From positions 1-37,524 of IMG/VR virus record IMGVR_UViG_2718217884_000001: a DNA stretch of 37,524 bases; one strand, written 5' to 3'. Below the pieces are notes generated by a model. It searched no databases. It was not told where the DNA came from and saw nothing but the letters and a program-made list of their open reading frames with translations. A program made the position numbers and the translations under genes. This DNA is from a virus (Duplodnaviria > Heunggongvirae > Uroviricota > Caudoviricetes). This document shows positions 981 through 37,524 of the stretch, piece by piece. Positions within the stretch are counted from its first letter, which is position 1, and each line of letters begins with the position of its first letter.

Positions 981-1035
981 GCAAGCACCTTAAAATCACC
1001 ATCATACACTAAATCAGTAAGTTGGCAGCATTACC

Positions 1036-2092
1036 GAAATCCTTGCTCATTGAGAGCTGTACTTGCGATAGAACGCAAGCCATGAGAAACGAGAACACCT
1101 CCTAACCCAGCACGCTTGAGTGCTGCATTCACTGTTTGGCTGTTCATTGGCTGGGTTGGTTTGATGCGACTGGGAAAGATAAATTCTCGACCACCACTGA
1201 GGGACTTCATCATTTCCAGAATTGAGATAGCCTCATCCGATAGTGGAACCGTATGGTCTCGGTTCATCTTCATTCGAGCTGCTGGAATTTTCCATTCTTT
1301 AGCATTGAAATCGATCTCATCCCATCGTGCCTCAGCAGCTTCGGCAGGGCGGGTAATGGTGAGAAGCTGCCACATGAACAGACACCGCGTGGACACACTG
1401 ATACTTGCCGTACGCATTGTTTGCATTAACTGTGGAAGTTGATCCGGGCGGATACTTGGCATGTTTTTCTTCTGCGGTTTCTCGAATGCTTTCCCGATAT
1501 TTACACTGGGAACTGCATCAATCAGGCCTGTGTTCTGTGCATAAATCATGACTTCATTAATACGCTGACAAAGGCGGCGAACAGTCTCTAATGCCCCCCT
1601 AGCCTGAACCGGCTGAACTGCTTTAACCAGAGTATGAGCCTTAATCTCAGTGACACTGATATCACCGATTGCTGGAAAAATATCTCTCTCAAGTGAGCGC
1701 CAGATATCGTCAGCATAGTCCTCTGTTACGCTGGCTTTCCTCACATTCCACCAACGCTCAGCAACTAACAAGAAGGTATTAGTTTTGGCCTCTTGAGAAT
1801 TTCTCACCTGTTCTTTCTGATGTTCCTGAGGATCAATGTCTTTCGCCAATAAAACTTTAGATTCGGCTCTGAGTTTACGTGCATCAGAAAGCGAGACGGC
1901 AGGGTAGGCACCGAAGCTCTGTTTGGTTCGCTGCTTGGTCAGAGGCCGATAGTAACGGAATTGCCAGAGCTTACTTCCACTGGATTTGATTAACAGAGTA
2001 AGTCCGTCACCATCATACAACTGGTAATCGGCATCTTTAGGTTTAGCGGCTTTGATTTCCGTATCGGTTAACGGCTTTGTTTTTCTTGCCAT
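1036..2092 (-). pseudogene. intA: CP4-57/P4-type tyrosine integrase (IntA-like), C-terminally truncated by IS1
   Basis: Translation from ATG at 2092 (MARKTKPLTDTEIKAAKPKDADYQLYDGDGLTLLIKSSGSKLWQFRYYRP...) is typical of P4-family integrases; GGAG Shine-Dalgarno 8 nt upstream; ORF ends ...HGLRSIASTALNEQGF at the IS1 boundary, so the catalytic Tyr region is missing. Confidence 0.85.
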
Positions 2093-2214
2093 GGGGAGTC
2101 TCCATGCGTTTAGGCCCAACGAAAACAATAGAGCTTTTCGTTGGGCCTATCAATGGGCCTAAAAGGTTCGGATTTAATTAGTTCTCTTCGGACTTCGCGG
2201 GACAAATTGAAGGC

Positions 2215-19581: not shown

Positions 19582-20439
19582 CTATGAAATTAGTGATATT
19601 TTTTGATTGTAGTAATCATAATCCGCATGTTCTTCAGTAAAGAATAATTCAAAAGCCGTTAGCATATTTGAATAAAAACTATCTTTTGATATTGCAGTTT
19701 TTCTCTCATTTTTAGCTAAGTAATTGGTTATGAATCTTAATGATGCTGAGAATAGAAAGTGCCCCTTTATCCAATGCGTTATGCAAGTGTTGGCAGGAAA
19801 TTGAATGTTGTTTTTTTCTGCTAACCCTACATTTCTGAAATCATCAGGAAGGGTTTGAATATAAGCATTTATCTTATCTTGACATGTTTTGTAAGAGTTT
19901 TTTGATTGCATAAATCTATCGCATGAATCACCTACTACGGAATAGCCACGCTGATTTAAATGATTGTAAATATCTAAGGCAATTAGGTCTTCAATATTGT
20001 TATAAAACTCTAATAGCCAGGAGTTTATATTTATTCCTTGGATTTCTTTGGCACTGTATCTTCCCATGTGTTTTAACACACGGGATAGGACTTTCTCATC
20101 GACTATAGTATTTTCAATTGAGTAACCTTTTGTATAGATGATGTTTGTATGATTTACTAAGTTGGATGAAAAATGATTCAGATCTGCATCGCGGGCAACA
20201 ATTGCGTTTATTTGTCCTGATGTGATTCGCTCAATATAAGGTTCTAATGCTTCACACCCTCCAACTTCTTGCACTTCAACACTTAGTCGACCATTTTTTT
20301 TGAAAACTATTTCCCAAAATCCAATATCATCCTCACCTTCAACATATACCATGATATCAGCATCATAAAACATGCTGATAACATTTTCCGCCTCGTCAGA
20401 CCAATTAAAGTTATCTGTTCGAATCTCATTATTGGACAT
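19582..20439 (-). CDS. TOPRIM/DUF4435-like protein (PARIS AriB-like candidate effector)
   Basis: ATG 20439 overlaps the last codons of upstream ATPase gene; conserved acidic motifs VYVEGEDD and IVARDAD spaced as in TOPRIM folds; AT-rich. Confidence 0.5.
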   Translation of the reverse strand: MSNNEIRTDNFNWSDEAENVISMFYDADIMVYVEGEDDIGFWEIVFKKNGRLSVEVQEVGGCEALEPYIERITSGQINAIVARDADLNHFSSNLVNHTNIIYTKGYSIENTIVDEKVLSRVLKHMGRYSAKEIQGININSWLLEFYNNIEDLIALDIYNHLNQRGYSVVGDSCDRFMQSKNSYKTCQDKINAYIQTLPDDFRNVGLAEKNNIQFPANTCITHWIKGHFLFSASLRFITNYLAKNERKTAISKDSFYSNMLTAFELFFTEEHADYDYYNQKISLIS

Positions 20440-21682
20440 TGACAAGTTTCTCCATGTTAAAAATTGCACTCCTGTATTTTGAAGCTACTTCTGGAGAATG
20501 TGTGGCAGCTATTACTTGTGCATTGGGATTGAGTTTTTTGATTGCTGGGATAATGTTTCTTTGCCATTGAATATGTAGGGAGAGTTCAGGCTCATCTGTT
20601 AGGAAAATATATTGTTTTTCTCTTTGTAATAGGGTTTCTATGAATAAAATAAGTAATTGCTTCTCACCTGAAGATAAATTTTCCTGAATTATTGGTCCGT
20701 AAGTATTCTTTATGGAAAGTATTCCGCCTTGAAAGTCAAATTCCTTATCAGTAATAAATTCTTTTAAAATACTTAAAAATTGTTCAATGGGAGCGAAAAC
20801 TAAAGATGTTTTTTCTTTAGATTTTAAAGACATTCTAATTATTTTTTGTGTCTTTCTTAGCGCTTCAATTGAGCGGATGTCAAAACCATCTTTTTTATTT
20901 TGTTTTAATTCTGCAATGGTGTGATCAATAGTGTCAACATGGAAATTTATTTTCCGACGGACATTCATATCAATAGCGTTTAGTTGTGTGTACGCACTTA
21001 AAAGGTTTTGTTTTTCTTCCTCCTTGTTAAATTGAATGTTGTACGCCTTATCATCAATATCATCTTTACTATATAGAATAGATGCTAAAACTTCTTTTTG
21101 AAGTTCTAATGCAATATCTCTCGCTCGTTGAGATAATTCAAGTTGATATTTTGTTAATTCCTGCATTAATTCTGATAGTTTATAATCGACAGGGTTGATA
21201 AAGCGAGAGCCGTATTTGTCTCTAACCTCAAAGTCGTCACTATTCCTTAGTCTATAGACGGATAAAGATGAGAGTGAAACCAGTTTTGCTAATTCTGCTC
21301 TTAACTCCTCAGTCTCTTCTTGTGCTCTGCGTCTATAACTGAGGGAGATTCTTCTGTCATCGGCGTTGAATAGTCGGATGGTATGTTTTTTTGATGAAAG
21401 TTGATACTCTATTTTAGAGAACGGTGATGTATCACTCTCGATTTTCTTAATTTTTATTGTCTTAGTTTTCTTTTTGTCCTTTAGTTTTATTTCGGCACTA
21501 TTGAAATCATTGTTGTTAATGCCATCAAGGTCAATTGATAAAATTGAATGCAAAATATTCATAAAAGTTGTTTTGCCGGTTCCATTCCTTCCAATGATGA
21601 TGTTTACATCATCATTAAAAGAGCAAAGAGCATTTAATCTTTGCCAAAAACCATTGATAGCGATGCTTTGTATTTTATACAT
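20429..21682 (-). CDS. ABC-type ATPase (AAA_15/OLD-N-like; PARIS AriA-like candidate sensor)
   Basis: Walker A GRNGTGKTT, ABC signature LSSGEKQ, Walker B IFLTDEPELSLH, H-loop ATHSP; AAGGAG RBS 7 nt before ATG 21682; AT-rich. Confidence 0.6.
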   Translation of the reverse strand: MYKIQSIAINGFWQRLNALCSFNDDVNIIIGRNGTGKTTFMNILHSILSIDLDGINNNDFNSAEIKLKDKKKTKTIKIKKIESDTSPFSKIEYQLSSKKHTIRLFNADDRRISLSYRRRAQEETEELRAELAKLVSLSSLSVYRLRNSDDFEVRDKYGSRFINPVDYKLSELMQELTKYQLELSQRARDIALELQKEVLASILYSKDDIDDKAYNIQFNKEEEKQNLLSAYTQLNAIDMNVRRKINFHVDTIDHTIAELKQNKKDGFDIRSIEALRKTQKIIRMSLKSKEKTSLVFAPIEQFLSILKEFITDKEFDFQGGILSIKNTYGPIIQENLSSGEKQLLILFIETLLQREKQYIFLTDEPELSLHIQWQRNIIPAIKKLNPNAQVIAATHSPEVASKYRSAIFNMEKLVNVQ

Positions 21683-21725
21683 CAACTTACTCCTTGTTTT
21701 GGTTGAGTCGAACTTATCAACTGTT

Positions 21726-23620: not shown

Positions 23621-24218
23621 CCTGTTGCCGCCGGGTTCGTCGCCGCTTGAGCGCCGACTGGCGCAGACCTGCAGCGGGATTTCCGATCTGCAGGTATCGC
23701 TGCGTGATTTGTGGAATCCGTCAATCTGCCCGGTCAGATTCCTGCCTTATCTGGCCTGGGCGTTTTCTGTTGACCGCTGGGATGAGAGCTGGACAGAAAG
23801 CGTCAAGCGCCGCGTTGTGCAGGACGCTTTTTATATCCATCAGCACAAGGGGACAACCAGCGCCGTGCGGCGCGTGGTGGAGCCGTTCGGCTTTCTGATC
23901 CGCATCATTGAGTGGTGGCAGACTGGCGAAATACCAGGGACGTTCCGTCTGGATATTGGCGTGCAGGACCAGGGCATAACAGAAGAAACCTATCTGGAGC
24001 TGGAGCGCCTGATCGGTGACGCCAAACCGTGCAGCCGTCACCTGGTTGGTATGTCCATCAACCTGCAGACAGGTGGCCCGTATTTTGTGGGCGCAGCCAC
24101 CTACACCGGCGAAGAAATCACGATCTACCCGTATATCAACGAAACCATTATTTCCGGCGGCACCGCTTATGAGGGCGGGGCGGTCCATGTTATTGACACG
24201 ATGAGAGTGAACCCATGA
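23613..24218 (+). CDS. I: Baseplate/tail protein I (P2 gpI)
   Basis: ATG 23613 overlapping J stop. Confidence 0.8.
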   Translation: MNSLLPPGSSPLERRLAQTCSGISDLQVSLRDLWNPSICPVRFLPYLAWAFSVDRWDESWTESVKRRVVQDAFYIHQHKGTTSAVRRVVEPFGFLIRIIEWWQTGEIPGTFRLDIGVQDQGITEETYLELERLIGDAKPCSRHLVGMSINLQTGGPYFVGAATYTGEEITIYPYINETIISGGTAYEGGAVHVIDTMRVNP

Positions 24219-25203
24219 GCGCAAAATTTTACACCCTGCTGACGGATATCGGCGCGGCGAAACTGGTAAGCGCCGCCGCGCTCGGTGTCCCACTAAAAAT
24301 TACCCATATGGCGGTGGGCAGCGGTGGTGGTATGCTGCCCACACCCAACGCGCAACAGACCGCGTTAGTGGCTGAGGAACGCCGCGCAGCGCTGAATATG
24401 CTGTATATCGACCCACAGAACAGCAGCCAGATTATTGCTGAGCAGGTGATCCCGGAAAATGAGGGCGGGTGGTGGATTCGTGAAGTCGGCCTGTTTGATG
24501 AAACAGGTGCGCTAATTGCTGTGGGAAACTGCCCGGAGAGCTACAAGCCGAAGCTGGCGGAGGGCAGCGGACGCACGCAGACCGTGCGAATGGTACTGAT
24601 TACCAGCAGCACGGATAACATCACCCTGAAAATTGACCCCGCTGTGGTTCTGGCAACCCGCAAATATGTGGATGATAAGGTGCTGGAACTTAAGGTGTAT
24701 GTGGATGACCTGATGGCAAAGCATCTTGCTGCGGTTGATCCTCATTCGCAATATGCACCAAAAGACAGTCCGACTCTGACAGGCATGCCTAAAACGCCAA
24801 CGCCACCGGCAGGAAACAACAGCACCCTGATTGCCAGTACAGCCTTTGTACAGGCCGCTATTCTTGCCCTGATAGGTGGCGCACCGGCAATGCTGGATAC
24901 GCTGAAAGAAATTGCGGCAGCTATCAATAATGACCCGAATTTCAGTACCACCATTAACAATGCGCTGGCACTGAAAGCACCACTGGCAAGCCCAGCCCTG
25001 ACCGGAACGCCAACGGCTCCGACTGCGGCGCAGACTGTGAACAATACGCAGATTGCCACTACAGCATTTGTGAAGGCAGCTATTGCCGGGCTGGTTGGTT
25101 CATCGCCGGAGGCGCTGGACACACTGAATGAACTGGCAGCTGCGCTGGGGAATGATCCTAACTTTGCGACAACAGTGATGAACGCGCTGGCGGGGAAACA
25201 GCC

Positions 25204-26542
25204 CATAAGCGCTAACTTAAGGGTTGAACCATCTGAAGAATGCGACGCCTCGGTGCCTCGTTAAGACGATGCCTCGCGTTCTTCAATTGCGTTTTGTAGG
25301 CTGTCAGGGATACTGTCCCACGAATGGCCACCTGTAAGCTCCAGATGACCATTTTTGTTATTCTCCACAACGAGTTAGTTCTTCTTTTCGGATCCGGCAC
25401 TTCTGGGGGGGAAATCCAGCGATGGCTGGATTATGTCGTCAATTAAAAATGCGGCGAGTAGATTAGCAAATATCCACGCTTTCGCGAGTTCAGGTTCCTT
25501 TGCACGCAAAGCATCCAGGTGCAGCAAACTTTTGAGCCGCTTAAAAGCCAGTTCAATTTGCCATCGCAGACGGTAACAATCAGCCACTTGCTCTGCTGAA
25601 TATTCATCTTCCGGTAATGATGTTAGCAATAGCACATGGCCCGCTGCTTCCAGCGTTTCCGCCTGAACTACTCGTCCTTTTCGACGATTCTCGCTGAGCA
25701 GTCGGGTTTTACTGATTAATGCTTTTTCGGGAGGAAGTGATACGGCAATGAGACGTGCCGGAAAGGGAGCTCCGGCTTTTTTATTACCTGAATTGCCTAT
25801 CATTACAGTGGTTTCACCGTTCTTACCGCAATCCAGCCCGCGCAGAAAACCCATCATGTCAAAGCGCATTCCTTCTGCAGTTAACCAGCGCAATCCTCGC
25901 CAGTGAACCCGGACGATATAATCAGCTTCTCCAAAAGCAAGTGAGCGGATACATTCGGGACGCGAACCGAATCCCCGGTCAGCAATGCGTATCTCGTCTG
26001 CCGTTTGCGCAAATCGGTCCAGCCGTTCAGCGTCTCTGCTGTCGGTTAGCTCAAAATCAGTGAACTGACAGGTATGAGGATCATATCCCATATGTAGTCG
26101 CCATTCAGCGCTGCCGCCCCCGGGCGCACTGATTGCTGTTCCATCGACAAGACGCAATCTCTTTCCGCTTGTACAACCCGTAACTGCGGCGCGTACAGCA
26201 AGTGTTTGTGCGGCAAGTATGCCAAACCAGTCGGCGGCATTCCGCAGCCGCTTCAGGAGAGCCACGTCAGATAATGTTGCAACGTCATGGAGCTGAGCCC
26301 ATGCAGTGACTTCACGTAATGACATCCCCCCGGGGCCGTAAGCCAGCCCCAGACGTAGCAGAGTTGCAGCATCACGAATTTCGCGGCGGCGGGTTAGAGC
26401 CCCGGCATTACGTGCCGAAGTATCCAGTTCTTCGGGCTTACCAATATGGGCCAGAATTGCTGACCAGTTATCGTGAGAGTAATTCATCGGCACGTTAAAT
26501 CATATCAGGCGTAATACCACAACCCTTAAGTTAGCGCTTATG
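25204..26542 (-). mobile_element. IS186 (IS4 family) insertion
   Basis: Inverted repeats CATAAGCGCTAACTTAAGGGTTG / CAACCCTTAAGTTAGCGCTTATG; direct repeat GGAAACAGCC at 25194..25203 and 26543..26552. Confidence 0.88.
25375..26493 (-). CDS. IS186 transposase (DDE, YREK motif)
   Basis: 372 aa; ...CYRLRWQIELAFKRLKSLL contains the IS4-family Y-R-E-K signature. Confidence 0.88.
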   Translation of the reverse strand: MPMNYSHDNWSAILAHIGKPEELDTSARNAGALTRRREIRDAATLLRLGLAYGPGGMSLREVTAWAQLHDVATLSDVALLKRLRNAADWFGILAAQTLAVRAAVTGCTSGKRLRLVDGTAISAPGGGSAEWRLHMGYDPHTCQFTDFELTDSRDAERLDRFAQTADEIRIADRGFGSRPECIRSLAFGEADYIVRVHWRGLRWLTAEGMRFDMMGFLRGLDCGKNGETTVMIGNSGNKKAGAPFPARLIAVSLPPEKALISKTRLLSENRRKGRVVQAETLEAAGHVLLLTSLPEDEYSAEQVADCYRLRWQIELAFKRLKSLLHLDALRAKEPELAKAWIFANLLAAFLIDDIIQPSLDFPPRSAGSEKKN

Positions 26543-26590
26543 GGAAACAGCCCCTCGATGCCACTTTGACTAACCTCAGCGGGAAAAGTG

Positions 26591-27083: not shown

Positions 27084-27686
27084 ATGACACAGGCAAAATT
27101 AAACAGTGAATTTATTGCCACAGTAGCGGGTGATATGACCGTCTATAACTATGACAACACGACACGGGAATACATTTCATCATCAACAGAATATCTTGCC
27201 GTTGGCGTCGGTATCCCGGCATGTTCTTGTTTAGATGCACCAGTTACACATAAAGCTGGTTATGCAATCTGCCGTTCTGCAGATTTTAACTCATGGGAAT
27301 ATGTGCCAGACCATCGCGGTGAAATCATCTATAGCACCGAAACAGGAGAATCGAAAGAAATCACAGCTCTGGGTGATTACCCTGAAAATACAACCACTAT
27401 CGCCCCGTTAACGCCATATGATAAATGGGATGGTGAGAAATGGGTGACGGATACCGAGGCACAGCACGGCGCAGCAGTAGATGCAGCAGAAGCACAGCGC
27501 CAGTCGCTGATTGATACTGCAATGGCCTCCATCAGTCTGATTCAGCTGAAATTGCAGGCCGGACGTAAACTGACGCAGGCAGAAACAACCCGCCTTAACG
27601 CTGTGCTGGATTACATTGACGCGGTGACGGCAACAGATACCAGCACCGCGCCGGATGTCATCTGGCCTGAACTGCCGGAGGCGTAG
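27084..27686 (+). CDS. G: Tail fibre assembly chaperone (P2 gpG-like)
   Basis: 200 aa; C-terminal ...DYIDAVTATDTSTAPDVIWPELP typical of Tfa proteins. Confidence 0.8.
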   Translation: MTQAKLNSEFIATVAGDMTVYNYDNTTREYISSSTEYLAVGVGIPACSCLDAPVTHKAGYAICRSADFNSWEYVPDHRGEIIYSTETGESKEITALGDYPENTTTIAPLTPYDKWDGEKWVTDTEAQHGAAVDAAEAQRQSLIDTAMASISLIQLKLQAGRKLTQAETTRLNAVLDYIDAVTATDTSTAPDVIWPELPEA

Positions 27687-28110
27687 GCCATTCAATATCT
27701 GGCGCACCGGAAGTATCGACCAGCTCCAGTGCGTCCAGATAATCCAGCCACAAATTATATTGCGCCAGTTCATCATCTTTCAGACGACCAATAGCGGCTT
27801 TACCGGGCCATTGCTTACTGTTCATGTATTCGTTGGCCTGGTTAATTAGTAGCTGTCTTTCTGATTCAGTAATTTCAATAAGCTCTTCATGCGTGGGTGG
27901 AGGAATATCTGCCCACGCAGGCAGCCCATCATTTCCGGCAATACGGATTTTTCCTTGTGGCGGTTCAGCCATAAACTCACTGATAATATTTTGATTCACT
28001 TCCTTAGCATCTGATAAATCCCATCCCTCTGATTTATATTTATCAATCATATCCACAGGGAAAAAAGCATTATGCCTTGCGCTATAAACATATTCGTTCA
28101 TATAAATCAC
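27658..28110 (-). CDS. Alternative tail fibre assembly chaperone (inverted orientation)
   Basis: 150 aa; C-terminal ...DYLDALELVDTSGAPDIEWP parallels gpG; convergent with G. Confidence 0.75.
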   Translation of the reverse strand: MIYMNEYVYSARHNAFFPVDMIDKYKSEGWDLSDAKEVNQNIISEFMAEPPQGKIRIAGNDGLPAWADIPPPTHEELIEITESERQLLINQANEYMNSKQWPGKAAIGRLKDDELAQYNLWLDYLDALELVDTSGAPDIEWPTPPAVQAR

Positions 28111-28121
28111 CCTGAATAAAA

Positions 28122-28481
28122 TTACTCACCAACAGCCCACCAACTGTAATTCATCGATACAGTGTTGCTGGTTGATGACGTTCTGTAAGCAGAATTAAAG
28201 CCGGTTAACGTTGGGTCTTCTGCAGTCATCATGAACCCTCGCCCAGCGCCTAAAGGCGCACCGCCATCACCAGAATGAGTAAGCATGGCGCAGTCCGCTT
28301 TTTTGGGGAAAGGGATGCTGAATGTAATTCTCATTGTTTGCGTCGATAATGTCGGCGTAACCGCACCACGACCATATTGCAGGATTTTCCCGTTGGGTAA
28401 TTTCATCCATCCATCACCACTGGCAAAAGAGGCCATGTCCGGTATCTGATTTTCCCCTGTCCCCACATCCCGTTTTGCCGC
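28122..28481 (-). CDS. Alternative tail fibre C-terminal segment (promoterless; fused to H after inversion)
   Basis: Open frame continues from the right crossover site; after inversion would read ...YLGLGE-AAKRDVGTGENQ... in frame with H. Confidence 0.65.
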   Translation of the reverse strand, partial: AAKRDVGTGENQIPDMASFASGDGWMKLPNGKILQYGRGAVTPTLSTQTMRITFSIPFPKKADCAMLTHSGDGGAPLGAGRGFMMTAEDPTLTGFNSAYRTSSTSNTVSMNYSWWAVGE

Positions 28482-28507
28482 TTCTCCCAAACCAACATTT
28501 AGCCAAA
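28482..28507. promoter_or_regulatory. Hin/Gin-type recombination site (right crossover site)
   Basis: TTCTCCCAAACCAACATTTAGCCAAA; first 14 nt identical to reverse complement of left site inner half-site plus core. Confidence 0.65.
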
Positions 28508-28592
28508 GCCAGTATTGAATCAGTTACGTAGCAAATGATTCCAGCATCTGAAAATCATGGCATGCTGTTTACCTTTTAAGAGGTTATTTTTC

Positions 28593-29150
28593 ATGCAAAT
28601 AGGCTATGTGAGGGTGTCAACAAATGACCAGAACACTGCTTTGCAACGTGATGCACTGGAACGCTCAGGATGTGAGCTAATTTTTGAAGACAAAATGAGC
28701 GGAAAAACAGCAGACAGACCAGGGCTAAAAAGGTTGCTCAGGACGTTATCAGAGGGAGACACGCTGGTTGTATGGAAGCTCGACAGGCTGGGAAGAAGCA
28801 TGCGACACCTTGTTACCCTGATAGAAGAACTCCGGCAGCGCGGAGTTAATTTCCGTAGTCTGACTGACAGCATAGACACCAGTACACCAATGGGGCGGTT
28901 TTTCTTTCACGTTATGGGGGCACTGGCGGAGATGGAACGCGAGTTGATAGTGGAACGAACCCGTGCGGGACTGGAAGCCGCAAGAGCTAAAGGCAGGATT
29001 GGAGGGCGAAGACCAAAACTGACGCCAGAGCAATGGGCACAGGCTGGCAGGTTACTTGCTGCAGGTGAAACACGGCAGCGGGTTGCTTTAATTTTTGATG
29101 TGGGGATCTCGACGTTATACCGCAAATATCCTGCGACATTGTGTGATTAA
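28593..29150 (+). CDS. Serine DNA invertase (Hin/Gin/Pin/Cin family)
   Basis: MQIGYVRVSTNDQN...GDTLVVWKLDRLGRS...MGRFFFHVMGALAEMERELIVERT matches the resolvase/invertase catalytic domain; C-terminal HTH. Confidence 0.9.
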   Translation: MQIGYVRVSTNDQNTALQRDALERSGCELIFEDKMSGKTADRPGLKRLLRTLSEGDTLVVWKLDRLGRSMRHLVTLIEELRQRGVNFRSLTDSIDTSTPMGRFFFHVMGALAEMERELIVERTRAGLEAARAKGRIGGRRPKLTPEQWAQAGRLLAAGETRQRVALIFDVGISTLYRKYPATLCD

Positions 29151-29233: not shown

Positions 29234-30406
29234 ATGGCTCAGGATTACCACCACGGGGTGCGCGTTGTTGAAGTCAACGAGGGCACCCGATCTATCACCA
29301 CGGTGAGCACCGCTATCGTGGGCATGGTCTGCACCGGCGATGATGCTGATGCGTCCGTGTTTCCTCTCAATAAGCCGGTTCTGCTGACGGATGTGCTGGA
29401 GGCCAGCGGTAAAGCAGGCGAGTCCGGCACGCTGGCCCGTTCGCTTGATGCGATTGCCGACCAATCAAAACCCGTGACGGTTGTTGTGCGCGTGGCGCAG
29501 GGCGAAACCGAAGCGGAAACCACCTCCAATATTATCGGTGGCGTCACGTCCGACGGTAAAAAAACGGGGATGAAAGCGCTGCTTTCTGCGCAGTCGCAGC
29601 TGAAAGTTAAGCCGCGCATTCTCGGTGTGCCGGGGCATGACACGCAGGCGGTAGCCACTGAGCTGATGAGTATTGCGCAGAGCCTGCGCGGGTTTGCCTA
29701 CCTGTCTGCCTATGGCTGCAAGACGGTGGAGGAAGCCATTGCTTACCGGGACAATTTCAGCCAGCGAGAAGGGATGCTGATCTGGCCTGATTTCATCAAC
29801 TTTGACACCGTTCTTAAAGCCGATGCGACGGCTTACGCCTCCGCACGTGCGCTCGGTCTGCGCGCCAAAATCGACGAACAGACCGGATGGCACAAAACCC
29901 TGTCCAACGTGGGTGTGAATGGCGTCACCGGTCTTTCCGCTGATGTGTTCTGGGATCTGCAGGACCCGGCAACAGACGCGGGACTGCTGAACCAGAATGA
30001 CGTCACCACGCTGATCTGCAAAGACGGCTTCCGCTTCTGGGGTTCCCGCTGCCTCAGTGACGATCCATTGTTTGCGTTTGAGAACTACACCCGTACGGCG
30101 CAGGTGCTGGCTGACACGATTGCAGAGGGGCATATGTGGGCGGTGGATAAGCCACTGAATCCGTCACTGGCCCGCGACATTATCGAAGGTATTCGCGCCA
30201 AATTACGCAGCCTGGTAAATCAGGGATACCTCATCGGGGCGGACTGCTGGCTGGATGAGTCAGTGAACGATAAAGACTCTCTGAAAGCCGGGAAGCTCAC
30301 CATCGACTACGACTACACGCCTGTGCCGCCGCTTGAAAATCTGATGCTGCGCCAGCGCATCACCGATCGCTACCTGGTCGATTTTGCCAGCCGTGTCAGT
30401 GCATAA
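29234..30406 (+). CDS. FI: Tail sheath protein (P2 gpFI)
   Basis: 390 aa, position and size. Confidence 0.88.
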
Positions 30407-30416
30407 GGGGGGATAC

Positions 30417-30932
30417 ATGGCATTACCACGCAAGTTAAAACACCTGAATCTGTTCAACGACGGGAACAACTGGCAGGGGATCGTTGAGTCCCTGACTCTG
30501 CCGAAATTCACCCGCAAGTTTGAGAAGTATCGCGGCGGCGGTATGCCGGGCGCGGTAGATGTGGATATGGGGCTGGATGACGGCGCACTCGACACGGAAT
30601 TTTCAATCGGCGGCACCGAACTGTTGTTATTCAAGCAGATGGGCAAGGCAACCGTTGATGGCATCCAGCTGCGTTTCACCGGCTCTATTCAGCGTGACGA
30701 TACCGGCGAAGTTCAGGCCATTGAGCTGGTTGTGCGGGGGCGTCATAAAGAAGTGGATTCCGGCGAGTGGAAAACCGGCGAGAGCAGCACCACCAAAGTC
30801 AGCAGCACCAACAGCTACGCGAAGCTGACCATTAACGGCGAAGTGCTCTATGAGGTTGATCTGGTCAACATGATTGAAATCGTTGACGGCGCGGACCTGA
30901 TGGAAGCACACCGTAACGCCCTTGGCCTCTGA
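30417..30932 (+). CDS. FII: Tail tube protein (P2 gpFII)
   Basis: ATG 30417; 171 aa. Confidence 0.88.
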   Translation: MALPRKLKHLNLFNDGNNWQGIVESLTLPKFTRKFEKYRGGGMPGAVDVDMGLDDGALDTEFSIGGTELLLFKQMGKATVDGIQLRFTGSIQRDDTGEVQAIELVVRGRHKEVDSGEWKTGESSTTKVSSTNSYAKLTINGEVLYEVDLVNMIEIVDGADLMEAHRNALGL

Positions 30933-30986
30933 TTTAACTTAACGGCGCGGTGATCCGCGCCAGTATCTGATTAACAGGAAACGAAC

Positions 30987-31289
30987 ATGAGCGACAAGCT
31001 GACTGAAAAAACCGTACAACTGGATACGCCCATCATGCGCGGTAAAACCCAAATCACCGAAATTGTGCTGCGTAAGCCGCAGTCCGGTGCGCTGCGCGGC
31101 ACCCGCCTGCAGGCCATTATGGATATGGACGTGGGGGCCATGATGACAGTGATCCCGCGTATTTCCACCCCAACGCTGACCGCACAGGAAATGGCTGAAC
31201 TGGACCCCGCCGATCTCACCGCGCTGTCGGTCGAGGTGGTGACTTTTTTGTTGAAGAAGTCGGTGCTTGCCGGTTTACCGACAGCCTGA
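30987..31289 (+). CDS. E: Tail assembly chaperone E (P2 gpE)
   Basis: 100 aa; contains slippery TTTTTTG near 3' end. Confidence 0.8.
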   Translation: MSDKLTEKTVQLDTPIMRGKTQITEIVLRKPQSGALRGTRLQAIMDMDVGAMMTVIPRISTPTLTAQEMAELDPADLTALSVEVVTFLLKKSVLAGLPTA

Positions 31290-31423
31290 CGATTGATGAC
31301 CTGGTGGCGGATATCGCCACCATCTTTCACTGGTCGCCGTCCATCACTGACGTTATGCCGCTGACAGAGGTGCTGGAGTGGCGGCATAAAGCGATTCAGA
31401 GAAGCGGGGCCAGCGATGAGTGA
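30987..31423 (+). CDS. E+E' frameshift-extended tail chaperone (programmed -1 frameshift at 31244..31250)
   Basis: Slippery heptamer T TTT TTG; -1 frame is open to TGA at 31421..31423, overlapping T start. Confidence 0.6.
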
Positions 31424-34400
31424 CAATAACCTGCGTCTGCAGGTGATTCTGAATGCGGTTGACAAGCTCACCCGCCCATTTCGATCCGCGCAGACCAGCT
31501 CAAAAGAGCTGGCTGCCGCCATTCAGCAAAGCCGCGCCCGGCTGAAAGAGTTAGATTCTCAGGCGGGCAGAATTGATGGCTTCCGTAAGGCCAGCGCGCA
31601 GCTAGCAGTCACAGGTAACAGCCTTAAAGCCGCCCGCGAAGAAGCGGCAAAACTCGCCACGCAGTTTACTGCGACCAACCGCCCGACGGCAGCTCAGGCC
31701 AGGCTGCTTGAGCAGGCTAAAAATCGCGTCACCGATTTACAGGGAAAATATAACGGGCTGCGTCAGTCAGTGCAGCGTCAGCGCCTTGCGCTGAATGAGG
31801 CAGGGCTTGATACAAAGAAACTGAGCAGCGCACAGCGTGAGCTACGGCAGAACGCCGATGAAACCCGACTGGCACTGGAGCGACAGCAAAAATCTCTGAA
31901 ACACCTGGGTGAACAGCAGGCGAGAATGAATGCGGTTCGTGATCAGTATTCGCGCCGTCTTGAGGTTCGGGATCGCATAGCCGGAGCCGGAGCCACCACT
32001 ACAGCTGCCGGGCTGGCAATGGGTGCGCCGGTTTTGGCTGCAGTGAAAAGCTACGCCAGCATGGAAGATGCCATGAAAGGCGTGGCAAAGCAGGTAAACG
32101 GGTTGCGGGACGATAACGGCAACCGTACAAAACAGTTTTATGACATGCAGGATGCCATTAAGGCTGCCAGTGAGCAGCTGCCGATGGAGAATGGCGCTAT
32201 AGATTATGCCGCGCTGGTTGAAGGGGGCGCGCGTATGGGCGTGACCAGCCAGGACGATCTCTTTGAGGACCAGAAACGTGACCTGCTGGCCTTTGCATCC
32301 ACGGCGGCAAAAGCTGCAACGGCCTTTGAGCTGCCCGCCGATGAGCTGGCGGAAGGATTGGGGAAAATCGCGCAGCTCTATAAAGTGCCGACGCGCAATA
32401 TTGAACAACTGGGCGATGCGCTGAACTACCTGGACGATAACGCCATGTCAAAGGGCGGGGACATTATCAACGTCCTGCAGCGTATGGGGGGCGTGGCTGA
32501 CCGCCTTGACTTCCGAAAAGCTGCTGCGCTGGGTTCAACATTCCTTTCTCTTGGGGCTGCCCCGGAAATTGCCGCCAGCGCCTCTAATGCCATGGTGCGT
32601 GAACTGTCCATTGCCACCATGCAAAGTAAGCGCTTCTTTGAAGGTATGAATCTGCTGAAACTCAATCCTGCGGAGATTGAAAAGCAGATGACCACCGATG
32701 CCATGGGCACCATTCAGCGGGTTCTGGAGAAGGTCAACAATCTGCCGCAGGATAAACGCCTGTCAGCCATGACAATGATTTTTGGTAAAGAGTTTGGCGA
32801 TGATGCGGCAAAGCTGGCTAACAACCTGCCGGAGCTGCAGCGTCAGCTGAAACTCACATCAGGCAGTGGTGCGAATGGCTCGATGCAGAAAGAATCCGAC
32901 ATTAACAAGGATTCATTGTCTGCGCAGTGGTTGCTGGTTAAGACTGGCGCGCAGAACGCTTTCAGCAGTCTGGGGGAAACGTTGCGCCAGCCGCTGATGG
33001 ATATTATGGGCATGGTTAAGGGTGTGACCGGGGCGCTGCGTCGCTGGGTGGAGCAGAATCCCGTGCTGGCTGGCACGCTGATGAAAGTGGCGGCGGCTAC
33101 GGCGGCTGTCACTGTCGGGCTGGGTACACTTGCCGTGGCAGTGGCTGCTGTGCTGGGGCCGATTGCGGTGATTCGGTTTGGCCTGTCTGTGCTGGGTGTA
33201 AAAACATTACCTTCCGTTGCTGCAGCGGTAACACGTACTGGCGGTGCCCTGTCATGGCTGGCAGGTGCGCCACTTTCCCTGTTGCGTCGGGGTATGGCGT
33301 CATCCGGTGGCAGTGTAGGGTTACTGAGTGCCCCGCTTAATTCCCTGCGTCGCTCAGCCGGAATAGCGGGTAATGCACTGAAAACGGTGGCAGGTGCTCC
33401 GCTTGCCGTGTTCCGTGTCGGTATGTCAGGCATCCGTAATGTTATCGGTATGGTGATGAACCCGCTGGCGGCGTTGCGTGGTGGGCTGACAGCTGCCGGT
33501 GGCGTATTGCGTTTTCTTGTTTCTGGTCCGCTGGCATTACTTCGCGGCGCGCTGTTTGGTATTTCCGGCCTGCTGGGTGCGCTGCTCAGTCCGATAGGGC
33601 TGGTTGTGGCTGCGCTGGCTGGTGTGGCGCTGGTTGTGTGGAAATACTGGCAGCCCATCAGTGCATTTCTGGGGGGCGTGGTGGAAGGGTTCAAAGCCGC
33701 TGCAGCGCCAATTAGCGCCGCCTTTGAGCCGCTCAGGCCCATGTTCCAGTGGATTGGTGACAGGGTGCAGGCCTTGTGGGGCTGGTTCAGCGATTTACTT
33801 TCGCCGGTTAAATCCACTTCCGAAGAACTGAACAGCGCAGCTGCAATGGGGCGCCGGTTTGGTGAGGCGCTGGCGGAAGGTCTGACTATGGTGATGCACC
33901 CGCTGGAGTCTCTTAAATCCGGTGTGTCATGGCTACTGGAAAAGCTCGGTATTGTCAGTAAGGAGGCGGCAAAGGCGAAACTGCCTGCACAGGTCACGCA
34001 GCAGCAATCCGCCACGGTGAACAGTGACGGCAAAGTGGTGCTGCCGCCAGGCGGGTTCCCGGCTTACGCAGGGATGTACGACACGGGCGGGATCATTCCA
34101 CGCGGGCAGTTTGGCATTGTTGGAGAAAATGGCCCTGAAATTGTGAACGGACCGGCAAATGTCACCAGCAGGCGGCGTACTGCTGCGCTTGCCTCTGTCG
34201 TTGCAGGCGTTATGGGGGTTGCTGCGACACCTGCAGAAGCGGTTCCGCTTCATCCGTTCAGTCTGCCTGCGAGTGCATACCAGACGCAGCCAGTGAAGGC
34301 TGACAGCCCGCCGTCAGTTATTCGTTATGAGATAAATGCGCCCATTCATATCGTCGCGCAGCCGGGACAGAGTGCGCAGGATATTGCCCGTGAAGTGGCA

Positions 34401-34481
34401 CGTCAGCTTGACGAGCGGGAACGCAGGGCCAGGGCAAAAGCGCGCAGCAATTTCAGCGATCAGGGGGGGTATGAATCATGA
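31416..34481 (+). CDS. T: Tail tape measure protein (P2 gpT)
   Basis: 1021 aa, coiled-coil N-terminus, Gly/Ala-rich hydrophobic middle with degenerate repeats. Confidence 0.9.
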   Translation: MSDNNLRLQVILNAVDKLTRPFRSAQTSSKELAAAIQQSRARLKELDSQAGRIDGFRKASAQLAVTGNSLKAAREEAAKLATQFTATNRPTAAQARLLEQAKNRVTDLQGKYNGLRQSVQRQRLALNEAGLDTKKLSSAQRELRQNADETRLALERQQKSLKHLGEQQARMNAVRDQYSRRLEVRDRIAGAGATTTAAGLAMGAPVLAAVKSYASMEDAMKGVAKQVNGLRDDNGNRTKQFYDMQDAIKAASEQLPMENGAIDYAALVEGGARMGVTSQDDLFEDQKRDLLAFASTAAKAATAFELPADELAEGLGKIAQLYKVPTRNIEQLGDALNYLDDNAMSKGGDIINVLQRMGGVADRLDFRKAAALGSTFLSLGAAPEIAASASNAMVRELSIATMQSKRFFEGMNLLKLNPAEIEKQMTTDAMGTIQRVLEKVNNLPQDKRLSAMTMIFGKEFGDDAAKLANNLPELQRQLKLTSGSGANGSMQKESDINKDSLSAQWLLVKTGAQNAFSSLGETLRQPLMDIMGMVKGVTGALRRWVEQNPVLAGTLMKVAAATAAVTVGLGTLAVAVAAVLGPIAVIRFGLSVLGVKTLPSVAAAVTRTGGALSWLAGAPLSLLRRGMASSGGSVGLLSAPLNSLRRSAGIAGNALKTVAGAPLAVFRVGMSGIRNVIGMVMNPLAALRGGLTAAGGVLRFLVSGPLALLRGALFGISGLLGALLSPIGLVVAALAGVALVVWKYWQPISAFLGGVVEGFKAAAAPISAAFEPLRPMFQWIGDRVQALWGWFSDLLSPVKSTSEELNSAAAMGRRFGEALAEGLTMVMHPLESLKSGVSWLLEKLGIVSKEAAKAKLPAQVTQQQSATVNSDGKVVLPPGGFPAYAGMYDTGGIIPRGQFGIVGENGPEIVNGPANVTSRRRTAALASVVAGVMGVAATPAEAVPLHPFSLPASAYQTQPVKADSPPSVIRYEINAPIHIVAQPGQSAQDIAREVARQLDERERRARAKARSNFSDQGGYES

Positions 34482-34963
34482 TGATGGTGCTGGGTTTATA
34501 TGTATTTATGCTGCGCACTGTCCCTTATCAGGAGCTGCAGTATCAGCGCAGCTGGCGACATGCCGCCAACAGCCGGGTGAATCGCCGCCCGTCAACGCAG
34601 TTTCTTGGCCCGGATAATGATTCACTGACACTGTCCGGGGTTCTGCTGCCGGAAGTGACCGGAGGCAGGTTGTCATTGCTGGCGCTGGAGTTGATGGCAG
34701 AGCAGGGCAAAGCCTGGCCTTTGATTGAAGGCAGCGGAACCATTTACGGCATGTTTGTTATTGAAAGTCTGAGCCAGACAAAGACGGAGTTTTTTGCCAG
34801 CGGTATGCCCAGGCGCATTGAGTTTACGATCACCCTCAAACGGGTTGATGAATCACTGTCTGACATGTTCGGGAGCCTGAGTGACCCGCTCAGCAACCTG
34901 CAGGACTCTGCTGCCTCTGCGATTGGGGGGATTAAGAACACGGTAGGAGGATTGCTGCAGTGA
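34478..34963 (+). CDS. U: Tail protein U (P2 gpU)
   Basis: 161 aa, overlaps T stop. Confidence 0.85.
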   Translation: MMMVLGLYVFMLRTVPYQELQYQRSWRHAANSRVNRRPSTQFLGPDNDSLTLSGVLLPEVTGGRLSLLALELMAEQGKAWPLIEGSGTIYGMFVIESLSQTKTEFFASGMPRRIEFTITLKRVDESLSDMFGSLSDPLSNLQDSAASAIGGIKNTVGGLLQ

Positions 34964-36060
34964 ACGTTAATTCTGATCTTCTGAATCTGAACAGCAAAAG
35001 CCCGGCTTTCAGTATCGTCATTGAAGGTAAGGACGTGACGACCGTGCTGGATACCCGCCTGATGAGTCTGACGCTGACGGATAACCGGGGCTTTGAAGCG
35101 GACCAGCTTGATCTGGAGCTGGACGACGCCGACGGGCTGATCGCCCTGCCGCGACGTGGGGCAGTGATTCAGCTGGCGCTGGGCTGGAAAGGCCAGCCGC
35201 TTTTCCCTAAAGGGGCTTTTACTGTGGATGAAATTGAACACAGCGGTGCCCCTGACCGGCTGACCATCCGGGCGCGTAGCGCAGATTTCCGTGAAACCCT
35301 CAATACACGGCGCGAAAAATCATGGCATCAGACAACGGTGGGGGAGGTGGTAAAGGAAATAGCCGCCCGGCATAACCTCAAAATGGCGCTGGGTAAAGAC
35401 CTGACGGATAAGGCGCTGGATCATCTGGACCAGACCAATGAAAGCGATGCAAGTTTTCTGATGAAACTGGCGAGACAGTATGGGGCGATTGCTTCCGTTA
35501 AGGACGGGAATCTGCTGTTTATCCGGCAGGGACAGGGAAGAACGGCGAGCGGCAAGCCGCTGCCGGTTATCACCATCACTCGCAAAGCCGGTGACGGTCA
35601 TCGGTTCACCCTTGCTGATCGTGGTGCCTATACCGGTGTTATTGCCAGCTGGTTGCATACGCGTGAACCCAGGAAAAAAGAGACAACCAGTGTTAAGCGT
35701 CGTCGAAAGAAAACCACCACACCCAAAGAGCCGGAAGCAAAACAGGGCGATTATCTGGTGGGAACGGATGAAAACGTGCTAGTTCTTAATCGTACCTACG
35801 CCAACCGGAACAATGCTGAGCGCGCAGCAAAAATGCAGTGGGAACGTCTGCAGCGTGGGGTTGCTACATTTTCCCTGCAGCTCGCTGAGGGGCGGGCTGA
35901 TCTCTATACGGAAATGCCGGTGAAGGTTACAGGGTTCAAGCAGCCGATCGATGATGCAGAGTGGACCATTACCACCCTGACGCATTCTGTCAGCCCGGAT
36001 AATGGATTTACGACCAGCATGGAGCTTGAAGTAAAGATTGGTGATCTTGAAATTGAATAA
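34960..36060 (+). CDS. D: Tail protein D / late control D family (P2 gpD)
   Basis: 366 aa, GTG start overlapping U stop. Confidence 0.88.
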   Translation: MNVNSDLLNLNSKSPAFSIVIEGKDVTTVLDTRLMSLTLTDNRGFEADQLDLELDDADGLIALPRRGAVIQLALGWKGQPLFPKGAFTVDEIEHSGAPDRLTIRARSADFRETLNTRREKSWHQTTVGEVVKEIAARHNLKMALGKDLTDKALDHLDQTNESDASFLMKLARQYGAIASVKDGNLLFIRQGQGRTASGKPLPVITITRKAGDGHRFTLADRGAYTGVIASWLHTREPRKKETTSVKRRRKKTTTPKEPEAKQGDYLVGTDENVLVLNRTYANRNNAERAAKMQWERLQRGVATFSLQLAEGRADLYTEMPVKVTGFKQPIDDAEWTITTLTHSVSPDNGFTTSMELEVKIGDLEIE

Positions 36061-36462: not shown

Positions 36463-36509
36463 TTTGGTGGAGCTGGCGGGAGTTGAACCCGCGTCCGAAA
36501 TTCCTACAT
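36463..36509 (-). repeat. attR core: 47-bp direct repeat (within intact ssrA 3' end)
   Basis: Identical to 2294..2340. Confidence 0.9.
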
Positions 36510-36827
36510 CCTCGGTACTACATGCTTAGTCAGTCTTTACATTCGCTTGCCAGCTGCGGACGGACACGCCACTAACAAACTAGCCTGATTAAGTTTTAAC
36601 GCTTCAACCCCAGGCAGGGCTTCCACGCGATCTCTTTTGGGTTTGACCTCTCTTGATCCCCGTCCTAAGAGCGGAGGCTAGGGAGAGAGGGCTCTAAGCA
36701 GGTTATTAAGCTGCTAAAGCGTAGTTTTCGTCGTTTGCGACTATTTTTTGCGGCTTTTTACGAGGCCAACCGCCCCTCGGCATGCACCTTGGGTTTCGCA
36801 AATCCCGTCGAATCCAGAATCAGCCCC
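36465..36827 (-). ncRNA. ssrA: tmRNA (SsrA), intact
   Basis: Reverse complement begins GGGGCTGATTCTGGATTCGACGGG and ends GGTTCAACTCCCGCCAGCTCCACCA; tag region GCAAACGACGAAAACTACGCTTTAGCAGCTTAA (ANDENYALAA) present. Confidence 0.95.
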
Positions 36828-37041: not shown

Positions 37042-37524
37042 TTAACGGTGGGCGTTTTTCATGATACGCGCTTTATCCACCTGCCATTCGCGCTCTTTGA
37101 TATCTGAACGTTTATCGTGCTGTTTCTTACCTTTGGCGACGCCGATTTTCACTTTGCACCAGGCATTTTTCCAGTACAGGGAGAGCGCCACTACGGTATA
37201 GCCTTCTCGATTGACGCGACCGTACAATGAGTCCAGTTCGCGCTGGTTGAGAAGTAACTTGCGGGTACGGGTAGGATCGCACACCACATGCGTGGAGGCC
37301 ACTGCCATTGGCGTGATGTTTGCGCCAAACAGGAACGCTTCTCCGTCACGCAGAAGGACATAGCTGTCGCTGATATTGGCTTTTCCTGCGCGCAGGGATT
37401 TAACTTCCCAGCCTTGCAGGGCAAGTCCCGCTTCGAACTCTTCTTCGATAAAGTATTCGTGACGGGCGCGCTTGTTAAGCGCGATGGTCGCTGAACCAGG
37501 TTTATGTGCTTTTTTCTTCGTCAT
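37042..37524 (-). CDS. smpB: SsrA-binding protein SmpB
   Basis: 160-aa translation [56 protein letters not shown]...; start codon at window edge. Confidence 0.95.

Follow-up and report, generated by a model that had tools for sequence, protein, structure and literature searches.

The question raised by this locus is whether a short slippery sequence near the 3' end of a phage tail gene, E, makes some ribosomes shift into the -1 frame and produce a second, longer tail assembly chaperone, E+E', from the same start codon. The locus belongs to a window of 37,524 nucleotides, by which the whole analysed stretch of DNA is meant (IMG/VR virus record IMGVR_UViG_2718217884_000001, Caudoviricetes). A sequence-only reading had proposed such a programmed -1 ribosomal frameshift and had compared it with the E/E' arrangement of the P2 family. 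Judged on the encoded protein families, the comparison with P2 and the conservation among relatives, the site is very probably a P2/Fels-2-type programmed -1 frameshift that yields the tail chaperones E and E+E'.

Pfam matches along the tail operon cover the sheath (29234-30406), the tube FII (30417-30932), E (30987-31289), the tape measure (31416-34481), GpU (34478-34963) and GpD (34960-36060). The gene order is FI (sheath), FII (tube), E, E', T (tape measure), U, D, and the coordinates of FII agree with those of the annotated FII in the records of MLG42, RE-2010 and Fels-2. The features around E are given here with their strand and the basis of each assignment:

30417 to 30932, plus strand: tail tube gene FII, the upstream neighbour of E (Pfam Phage_tube PF04985, 6.4e-60)
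30987 to 31289, plus strand: gene E, the zero-frame tail assembly chaperone (Phage_TAC_7 PF10109, 9.5e-18; phrog_103, 3.4e-42)
31233 to 31241, plus strand: Shine-Dalgarno-like GAGGTGGTG (predicted 16S duplex, conservation)
31244 to 31250, plus strand: slippery heptamer T_TTT_TTG, the putative -1 shift site (register, P2 alignment, conservation)
31250 to 31289, plus strand: dual-coding overlap of the E C-terminal tail (frame 0) and the predicted E' linker (-1) (low variability)
31250 to 31423, plus strand: predicted E' extension, 57 codons and a TGA (Phage_P2_GpE PF06528, 1.6e-18; phrog_1756, 3e-22)
31304 to 31423, plus strand: 39-aa "GpE family phage tail protein" CDS from a GTG, the 3' part of E' (PGAP/GenBank annotation)
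31416 to 34481, plus strand: tape measure gene T (PhageMin_Tail PF10145, 2.2e-17; tape measure in the annotation of relatives)

The heptamer TTTTTTG at 31244-31250 is read as the codons ACT|TTT|TTG when E is translated from its ATG at 30987, and so stands in the X_XXY_YYZ register, as T_TTT_TTG. E runs from this ATG to the TGA at 31287-31289 and encodes 100 amino acids, and 39 nt, or 13 codons including the TGA, lie between the end of the heptamer and the end of the gene at 31289. The -1 frame entered at G31250 holds 57 sense codons, VEEVGACRFTDSLTIDDLVADIATIFHWSPSITDVMPLTEVLEWRHKAIQRSGASDE (VEEVGACRF...RSGASDE), followed by a TGA at 31421-31423. Both the slippery sequence near the 3' end of E, in the register of the gene, and the 57 open codons from 31250 to the TGA that ends at 31423 are thus as the sequence-only reading had described them. 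Its placing of this TGA over the start codon of T stands in part: the E' ORF does overlap T, whose ATG is at 31416 (ATGAGTGA), by 8 nt, but the TGA falls in codons 2-3 of T, off the ATG. The predicted E+E' joins residues 1-88 of E to the 57-codon extension, join(30987..31250,31250..31423), and would measure 145 amino acids, with the fusion junction ...VVTFL|VEEVG... and the junction peptide ...EVVTFLVEEVGACR.

Both parts of the predicted fusion belong to known tail families. E matches Phage_TAC_7 ("tail assembly chaperone proteins E, or 41 or 14") at 9.5e-18, with 64.5 bits against a cutoff of 25 and an alignment that spans 78 of the 79 profile positions, and the 57-residue -1 peptide alone matches Phage_P2_GpE, PF06528, at 1.6e-18, with 66.3 bits against a cutoff of 23. 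In PHROGs, E falls into phrog_103, "tail protein" (3.4e-42), and the -1 peptide into phrog_1756 (3e-22), which are both tail families, and the records of relatives name E as tail protein E or phage tail assembly protein. NCBIfam holds no model matching E or E+E', a sequence search of the PDB with E+E' found no relative, and Rfam has no family at the frameshift site, the sole match in the window being the tmRNA.

The closest well-described counterpart is that of P2. A tblastn search with the conceptual fusion matched 427 phage records, mostly as two pieces in two frames, and P2 is among them, with a match that covers the annotated "E+E'" CDS and the "site of -1 translational frameshift"; blastn with the window DNA did not find P2, the DNA identity being too low. 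The same join rule applied to P2 gives an E+E' of 142 amino acids, which equals the published length (PMC3091744). The fusion of the window and P2 E+E' align from end to end with 47% identity, and their heptamers share one column (FL|V.E.GA..F...L..DDL.AD.A.IFHW.PS). The heptamer of P2 lies at positions 19678-19684 of its record, adjoining the annotated frameshift site at 19685, and identity between P2 and the window in the -1 frame begins at the heptamer itself, with 9 identical residues in the 18 codons before GTG 31304.

The two loci have in common the TTTTTTG in the same register and alignment column, the order FI-FII-E-E'-T-U-D, a -1 extension of 57 codons, an E' stop that overlaps the start of T (ATGAGTGA in the window, ATGAGTAA in P2) and the lack of a special structure downstream of the heptamer. 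They differ in the length of E (100 amino acids in the window, 91 in P2) and of the fusions (145 and 142), and the distance from the heptamer to the end of E is 13 codons in the window against 7 in P2, which makes the dual-coding overlap longer; the C-terminal tails specific to E, LKKSVLAGLPTA in the window and SPNSVQ in P2, are unrelated in sequence. These differences, namely the 9 additional residues of E, the overlap of 13 codons rather than 7 and the E tail, are trivial. The claim of a P2-like E/E' arrangement is therefore borne out by gene order, Pfam matches, the 47% identity and the shared heptamer column. The comparison with P2 E/E', which had been suggested as a check, with a lack of similarity to E' to count against the proposal, found a -1 product that is clearly E'-like. 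In everything that can be tested on sequence, the locus is a member of the P2 E/E+E' family. The -1 frameshift of P2 E/E+E' is attributed to Christie et al. (2002) in two later papers (PMC3091744; PMC5009743).

The element is a Fels-2/Elveevirus-like prophage at ssrA. At the DNA level it shares 99.2% identity with Yersinia phage vB_YpM_MLG42 (Elveevirus), 100% with a prophage of E. coli L3Cip3 and about 92% with Fels-2, SopEPhi, SEN8 and RE-2010, and matches of at least 80% identity are found in 960 of 5426 complete E. coli genomes. Over 30900-31500, Fels-2 (Salmonella LT2 STM2699/STM2697.1), RE-2010 and MLG42 have 92-99% DNA identity and an identical organisation; essentially nothing at the locus sets them apart, and the prophage of the window has in addition, elsewhere, a PARIS-like island and an IS186-like insertion. 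The Fels-2 record already says "forms functional gpE+E' if translational slippage occurs". The frameshift arrangement seen at this locus is already known and ordinary, and it has been annotated before in both Fels-2 and P2.

How the site and the -1 frame evolve was followed in a set of 65 unique sequences, which comprises the window and its IMG/VR and GenBank relatives of 80-99% identity. The heptamer is TTTTTTG in 64 of the 65 and TTTTTTA, which is slippery too, in the remaining one, and at its synonymous positions (31244, 31247, 31250) 64-65 of the 65 agree. Upstream of the heptamer, variable sites concentrate at the third positions of frame 0 (71/85, against 26/86 and 10/86 elsewhere in the codon), and past the stop of E, from 31290 onwards, they concentrate at the third positions of the -1 frame (28/44, against 11/43 and 5/44). 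In the 40-nt overlap that both frames share, hardly anything varies, the mean minor-allele fraction being 0.005-0.014 at all three codon positions; in E outside the overlap, this fraction is 0.164 at third positions. Purifying selection acts on the -1 frame and on the heptamer.

The same arrangement extends to distant relatives, for which 11 sequences were compared: P2, phiRSA1, Burkholderia vB_PL2b, FSL SP-004, Mannheimia 587AP1, VHML, Aeromonas LPM4, Vibrio 10N.237, Citrobacter Shae_phiSM, SEN5 and Yersinia YenM_31.17. The set includes phages of Ralstonia, Burkholderia, Aeromonas, Vibrio, Mannheimia, Citrobacter, Yersinia and Salmonella. In all 11, E has an in-frame X_XXY_YYZ towards its end, and a homologous -1 ORF of 51-71 codons bears an ADIAxIFHW...WR...RSG motif. 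The slippery sequence is T_TTT_TTG in seven of them, and T_TTT_TTC, T_TTT_TTT, G_GGA_AAG and A_AAT_TTT in the other four. Since different slippery sequences occupy the same place among relatives, selection would appear to act on slipperiness itself.

There are other ways in which E' could be expressed or explained. E' could be an independent gene of 39 amino acids that starts at GTG 31304 and requires no frameshift, and the records of MLG42, RE-2010 and E. coli L3Cip3 do have a separate E' CDS at corresponding coordinates; several relatives, P2 among them (DDLMADV), have a GTG or ATG there, and the Pfam PF06528 model begins at about this point. This GTG, the sole candidate start, has however no Shine-Dalgarno sequence and a dG of +0.3 kcal/mol, against -4.3 to -11.2 kcal/mol at the starts of FI, FII, E, T, U and D. 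Moreover, the conservation with P2 in the -1 frame already begins 18 codons upstream of it, the synonymous sites of the heptamer are invariant, and in RSA1, VHML, Vibrio 10N and Mannheimia there is no start codon at this place, yet the -1 frame is still open from an in-frame slippery heptamer. For P2, Christie and colleagues are said to have found in 2002 that the E' frame is translated as an extension of E; E' is reportedly essential, and the fusion reportedly arises at about 10%. An independent E' gene is very improbable in the light of these observations, and the 39-aa CDS at 31304-31423 is an annotation artefact. RNA polymerase could also add one U within the T6 run, which would bring E' into frame on some of the mRNAs. 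The site is a homopolymer run, and a review (PMC5009743) documents transcriptional slippage as another way of making such fusions; the length of the run is also labile at the DNA level, because T7 occurs in sister lineages and T8, with E and E' in a single frame, in one contig. A run of six T is nevertheless short for this. For bacterial RNA polymerase to slip efficiently, about 8-9 or more identical bases in a row are usually needed. The G_GGA_AAG and A_AAT_TTT that relatives have at the same place suit tandem tRNA slippage and not polymerase stuttering, and the strict X_XXY_YYZ register to the frame of E is conserved, although transcription has no need of register, which together leave slippage of the polymerase with hardly any likelihood.

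It is even harder to credit that the heptamer and the open -1 frame are a product of chance or a non-functional remnant without a role. TTTTTTG is not rare, with 16 occurrences on the plus strand of the window, a -1 run of at least 57 codons exists at 3.2% of arbitrary codon positions, and the prophage, which has an IS in its tail-fibre gene, may be defective. Among the 21 in-frame X_XXY_YYZ sequences of 35 long ORFs, however, the heptamer at 31244 is followed by a longer -1 ORF than any other (57 codons, with 39 in second place), and chance is effectively refuted by the matches of the -1 peptide to families (1.6e-18 in Pfam, 3e-22 in PHROGs), by the pattern that purifying selection has left across codon positions of the -1 frame and by the conservation across genera. 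The programmed -1 frameshift that would yield E and E+E' is the reading that is kept in what follows.

The T8 run belongs to one sequence of IMG/VR (IMGVR_UViG_2734481921_000002, entered as both L005 and L097), in which 8 T at about 1740-1760 give a continuous 145-aa E/E' frame, and eight sister contigs with the same flanks as L005 have T7 and the normal two-frame arrangement. A single-frame E+E' was considered as an alternative architecture and rejected, given a singleton T8 against T7 in these eight contigs; the T8 is likely a homopolymer sequencing error or a private mutation.

A further point is whether signals around the heptamer modulate the shift. The Shine-Dalgarno-like GAGGTGGTG at 31233-31241 ends 2 nt before the heptamer, and its predicted duplex with the 3' end of 16S rRNA has -10.5 kcal/mol; among random 30-nt coding windows, a value of -8 kcal/mol or lower is seen in only about 10%. 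GAGGTGG (31233-31239) is invariant in the 65 relatives bar one change at 31238, its synonymous sites 31235 and 31238 being invariant in 64-65 of the 65, and the neighbouring position 31232 varies freely. Similar motifs (AAGGTG or GAGGTG) are also found in P2, RSA1, YenM and FSL SP-004, and none was found 5' of the heptamer in the Vibrio or Citrobacter members. The Shine-Dalgarno-like stimulators of dnaX and IS elements sit 10-14 nt upstream of the slip site. At an unusually short spacing of about 5 nt 5' of the heptamer, GAGGTGG is a doubtful candidate for a cis-acting modulator of the -1 shift, and probably is not one; if it were, it could tune the E:E+E' ratio at a site without downstream structure.

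Downstream of the site, no stimulator was detected: the first 60 nt after the heptamer fold like shuffled sequences (z = -0.02; -0.01 in P2), and 12 diverse members have fold z-scores of -2.2 to +1.4 and no common hairpin. A hairpin at 31259-31290, which starts 8 nt past the site, was rejected, for its substitutions in the 65 relatives all break pairs and none compensates. The 146 nt of 31255-31400 do fold better than shuffles (z = -2.7; in P2, z = -3.3 over 100 nt), and a stable local hairpin, GGUGGCG-GAUAU-CGCCACC, is found at 31302-31322, about 50 nt downstream of the slip site. As stimulators, these folds farther downstream were also discarded, given that the stems differ between the window and P2 and begin about 50 nt away; the hairpin and the fold of 31255-31400 probably arise incidentally, from the conserved codons for LVADIAT. 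P2-type frameshift sites have been reported without downstream RNA structures (PMC3091744), so that the lack of one here agrees with the report for P2 and is no real objection. An intrinsic terminator formed by 31222-31241 and the T run was considered and dismissed, its stem being weak, with 3 G-C pairs, and the region having 6 hits against 8.1 expected by chance.

A 47-bp direct repeat at 2294-2340 and 36463-36509, equal to the ssrA 3' end, marks off the prophage on both sides. The gene for the tmRNA occupies 36465-36827 on the minus strand and encodes the tag ANDENYALAA, with smpB adjoining at 37042-37524. Beyond the left repeat there is a second integrase, of the P4 type (1031-2128, minus strand), a sign that islands may stand in tandem at ssrA. 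Within the late region of the prophage, an AT-rich island on the minus strand (19582-21685; GC 33-42% against about 55-60% in the flanks) contains an AAA_15/AAA_21 ATPase (20429-21685; PADLOC AriA, 2.2e-36) and a DUF4435 protein (19582-20469; PADLOC AriB, 9.4e-23), which form a PARIS-type anti-phage defence pair in a cargo hotspot of the P2 family.

An IS186-like element lies at 25202-26544, with perfect terminal inverted repeats of 25 bp (CCCATAAGCGCTAACTTAAGGGTTG) and a DDE_Tnp_1 transposase on the minus strand (25375-26493); about 10 bp of the target are duplicated (GGAAACAGCC). The element splits the tail-fibre gene H, which starts at 24215, and its excision in silico gives an ORF of about 505 amino acids. 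The prophage is probably defective for tail fibres and, owing to this insertion in gene H, may fail to form complete particles, a point that matters for the proposal of the sequence-only reading to examine induced particles by mass spectrometry. Downstream of the tail-fibre and assembly genes, there is a serine DNA invertase (Resolvase and HTH_7; 28557-29150), which the opposed ORFs 27658-28110 and 28122-28490 (minus strand) adjoin; together, 27658-29150 looks like an invertible tail-fibre segment of the Gin/Cin/Hin type.

In the proposed mechanism, most ribosomes would stay in frame and end at 31287-31289, producing the 100-aa E, and a minority would slip by -1 on U_UUU_UUG (31244-31250), with tRNA-Phe on UUU in the P site and tRNA-Leu on UUG in the A site. 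In this tandem slippage, the two tRNAs would re-pair from UUU-UUG to UUU-UUU, and the shifted ribosomes would resume at GUU 31250 and end at the UGA at 31421-31423, giving the 145-aa E+E'. By analogy with P2 and lambda G/GT, the E part common to both products would bind or coat the tape measure T, and the E' domain would recruit the tube protein FII. With E on T and E' on FII, the slippage would fix the ratio of E to E+E' and in this way support correct tail assembly. For the putative slippage at T_TTT_TTG and its efficiency we infer from homology, and for the putative chaperone contacts of E and E+E' from analogy.

Lambda G/GT-like chaperones form a class whose short form attaches to the tape measure and whose extension attaches to the major tail or tube protein, neither chaperone being present in the virion. 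In a review (PMC5009743), which summarises the work on lambda G/GT (Levin et al., 1993; Xu et al., 2004, 2013, 2014), the short form acts on the tape measure and the extension on the tube protein, which is the role that E and E' may have here by analogy. The slip site of lambda is G_GGA_AAG, with an efficiency of about 3-4% and a ratio of 30:1, as opposed to T_TTT_TTG in the window, and the lambda tail is non-contractile, whereas the operon of the window is that of a contractile tail. No sequence match to lambda G/GT came up in the searches run.

For annotation, the right gene model consists of E (30987..31289) and a ribosomal-slippage CDS, join(30987..31250,31250..31423), with no free-standing 39-aa gene. 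In PP599993.1, HM770079.1 and NZ_CP062211.1, E' is given as a free-standing 39-aa CDS from the internal GTG. Names also vary in the neighbouring genes, with the homologue of the tape measure called "tail fiber assembly protein" in the MLG42 record and FII called "head closure" in several RefSeq phage records. That many records, RefSeq E. coli genomes included, split E/E' into two CDSs is the only practical point that follows. The locus raises no new question, and it adds one more case to the frameshifted pairs of tail chaperones that are near-universal among long-tailed phages.
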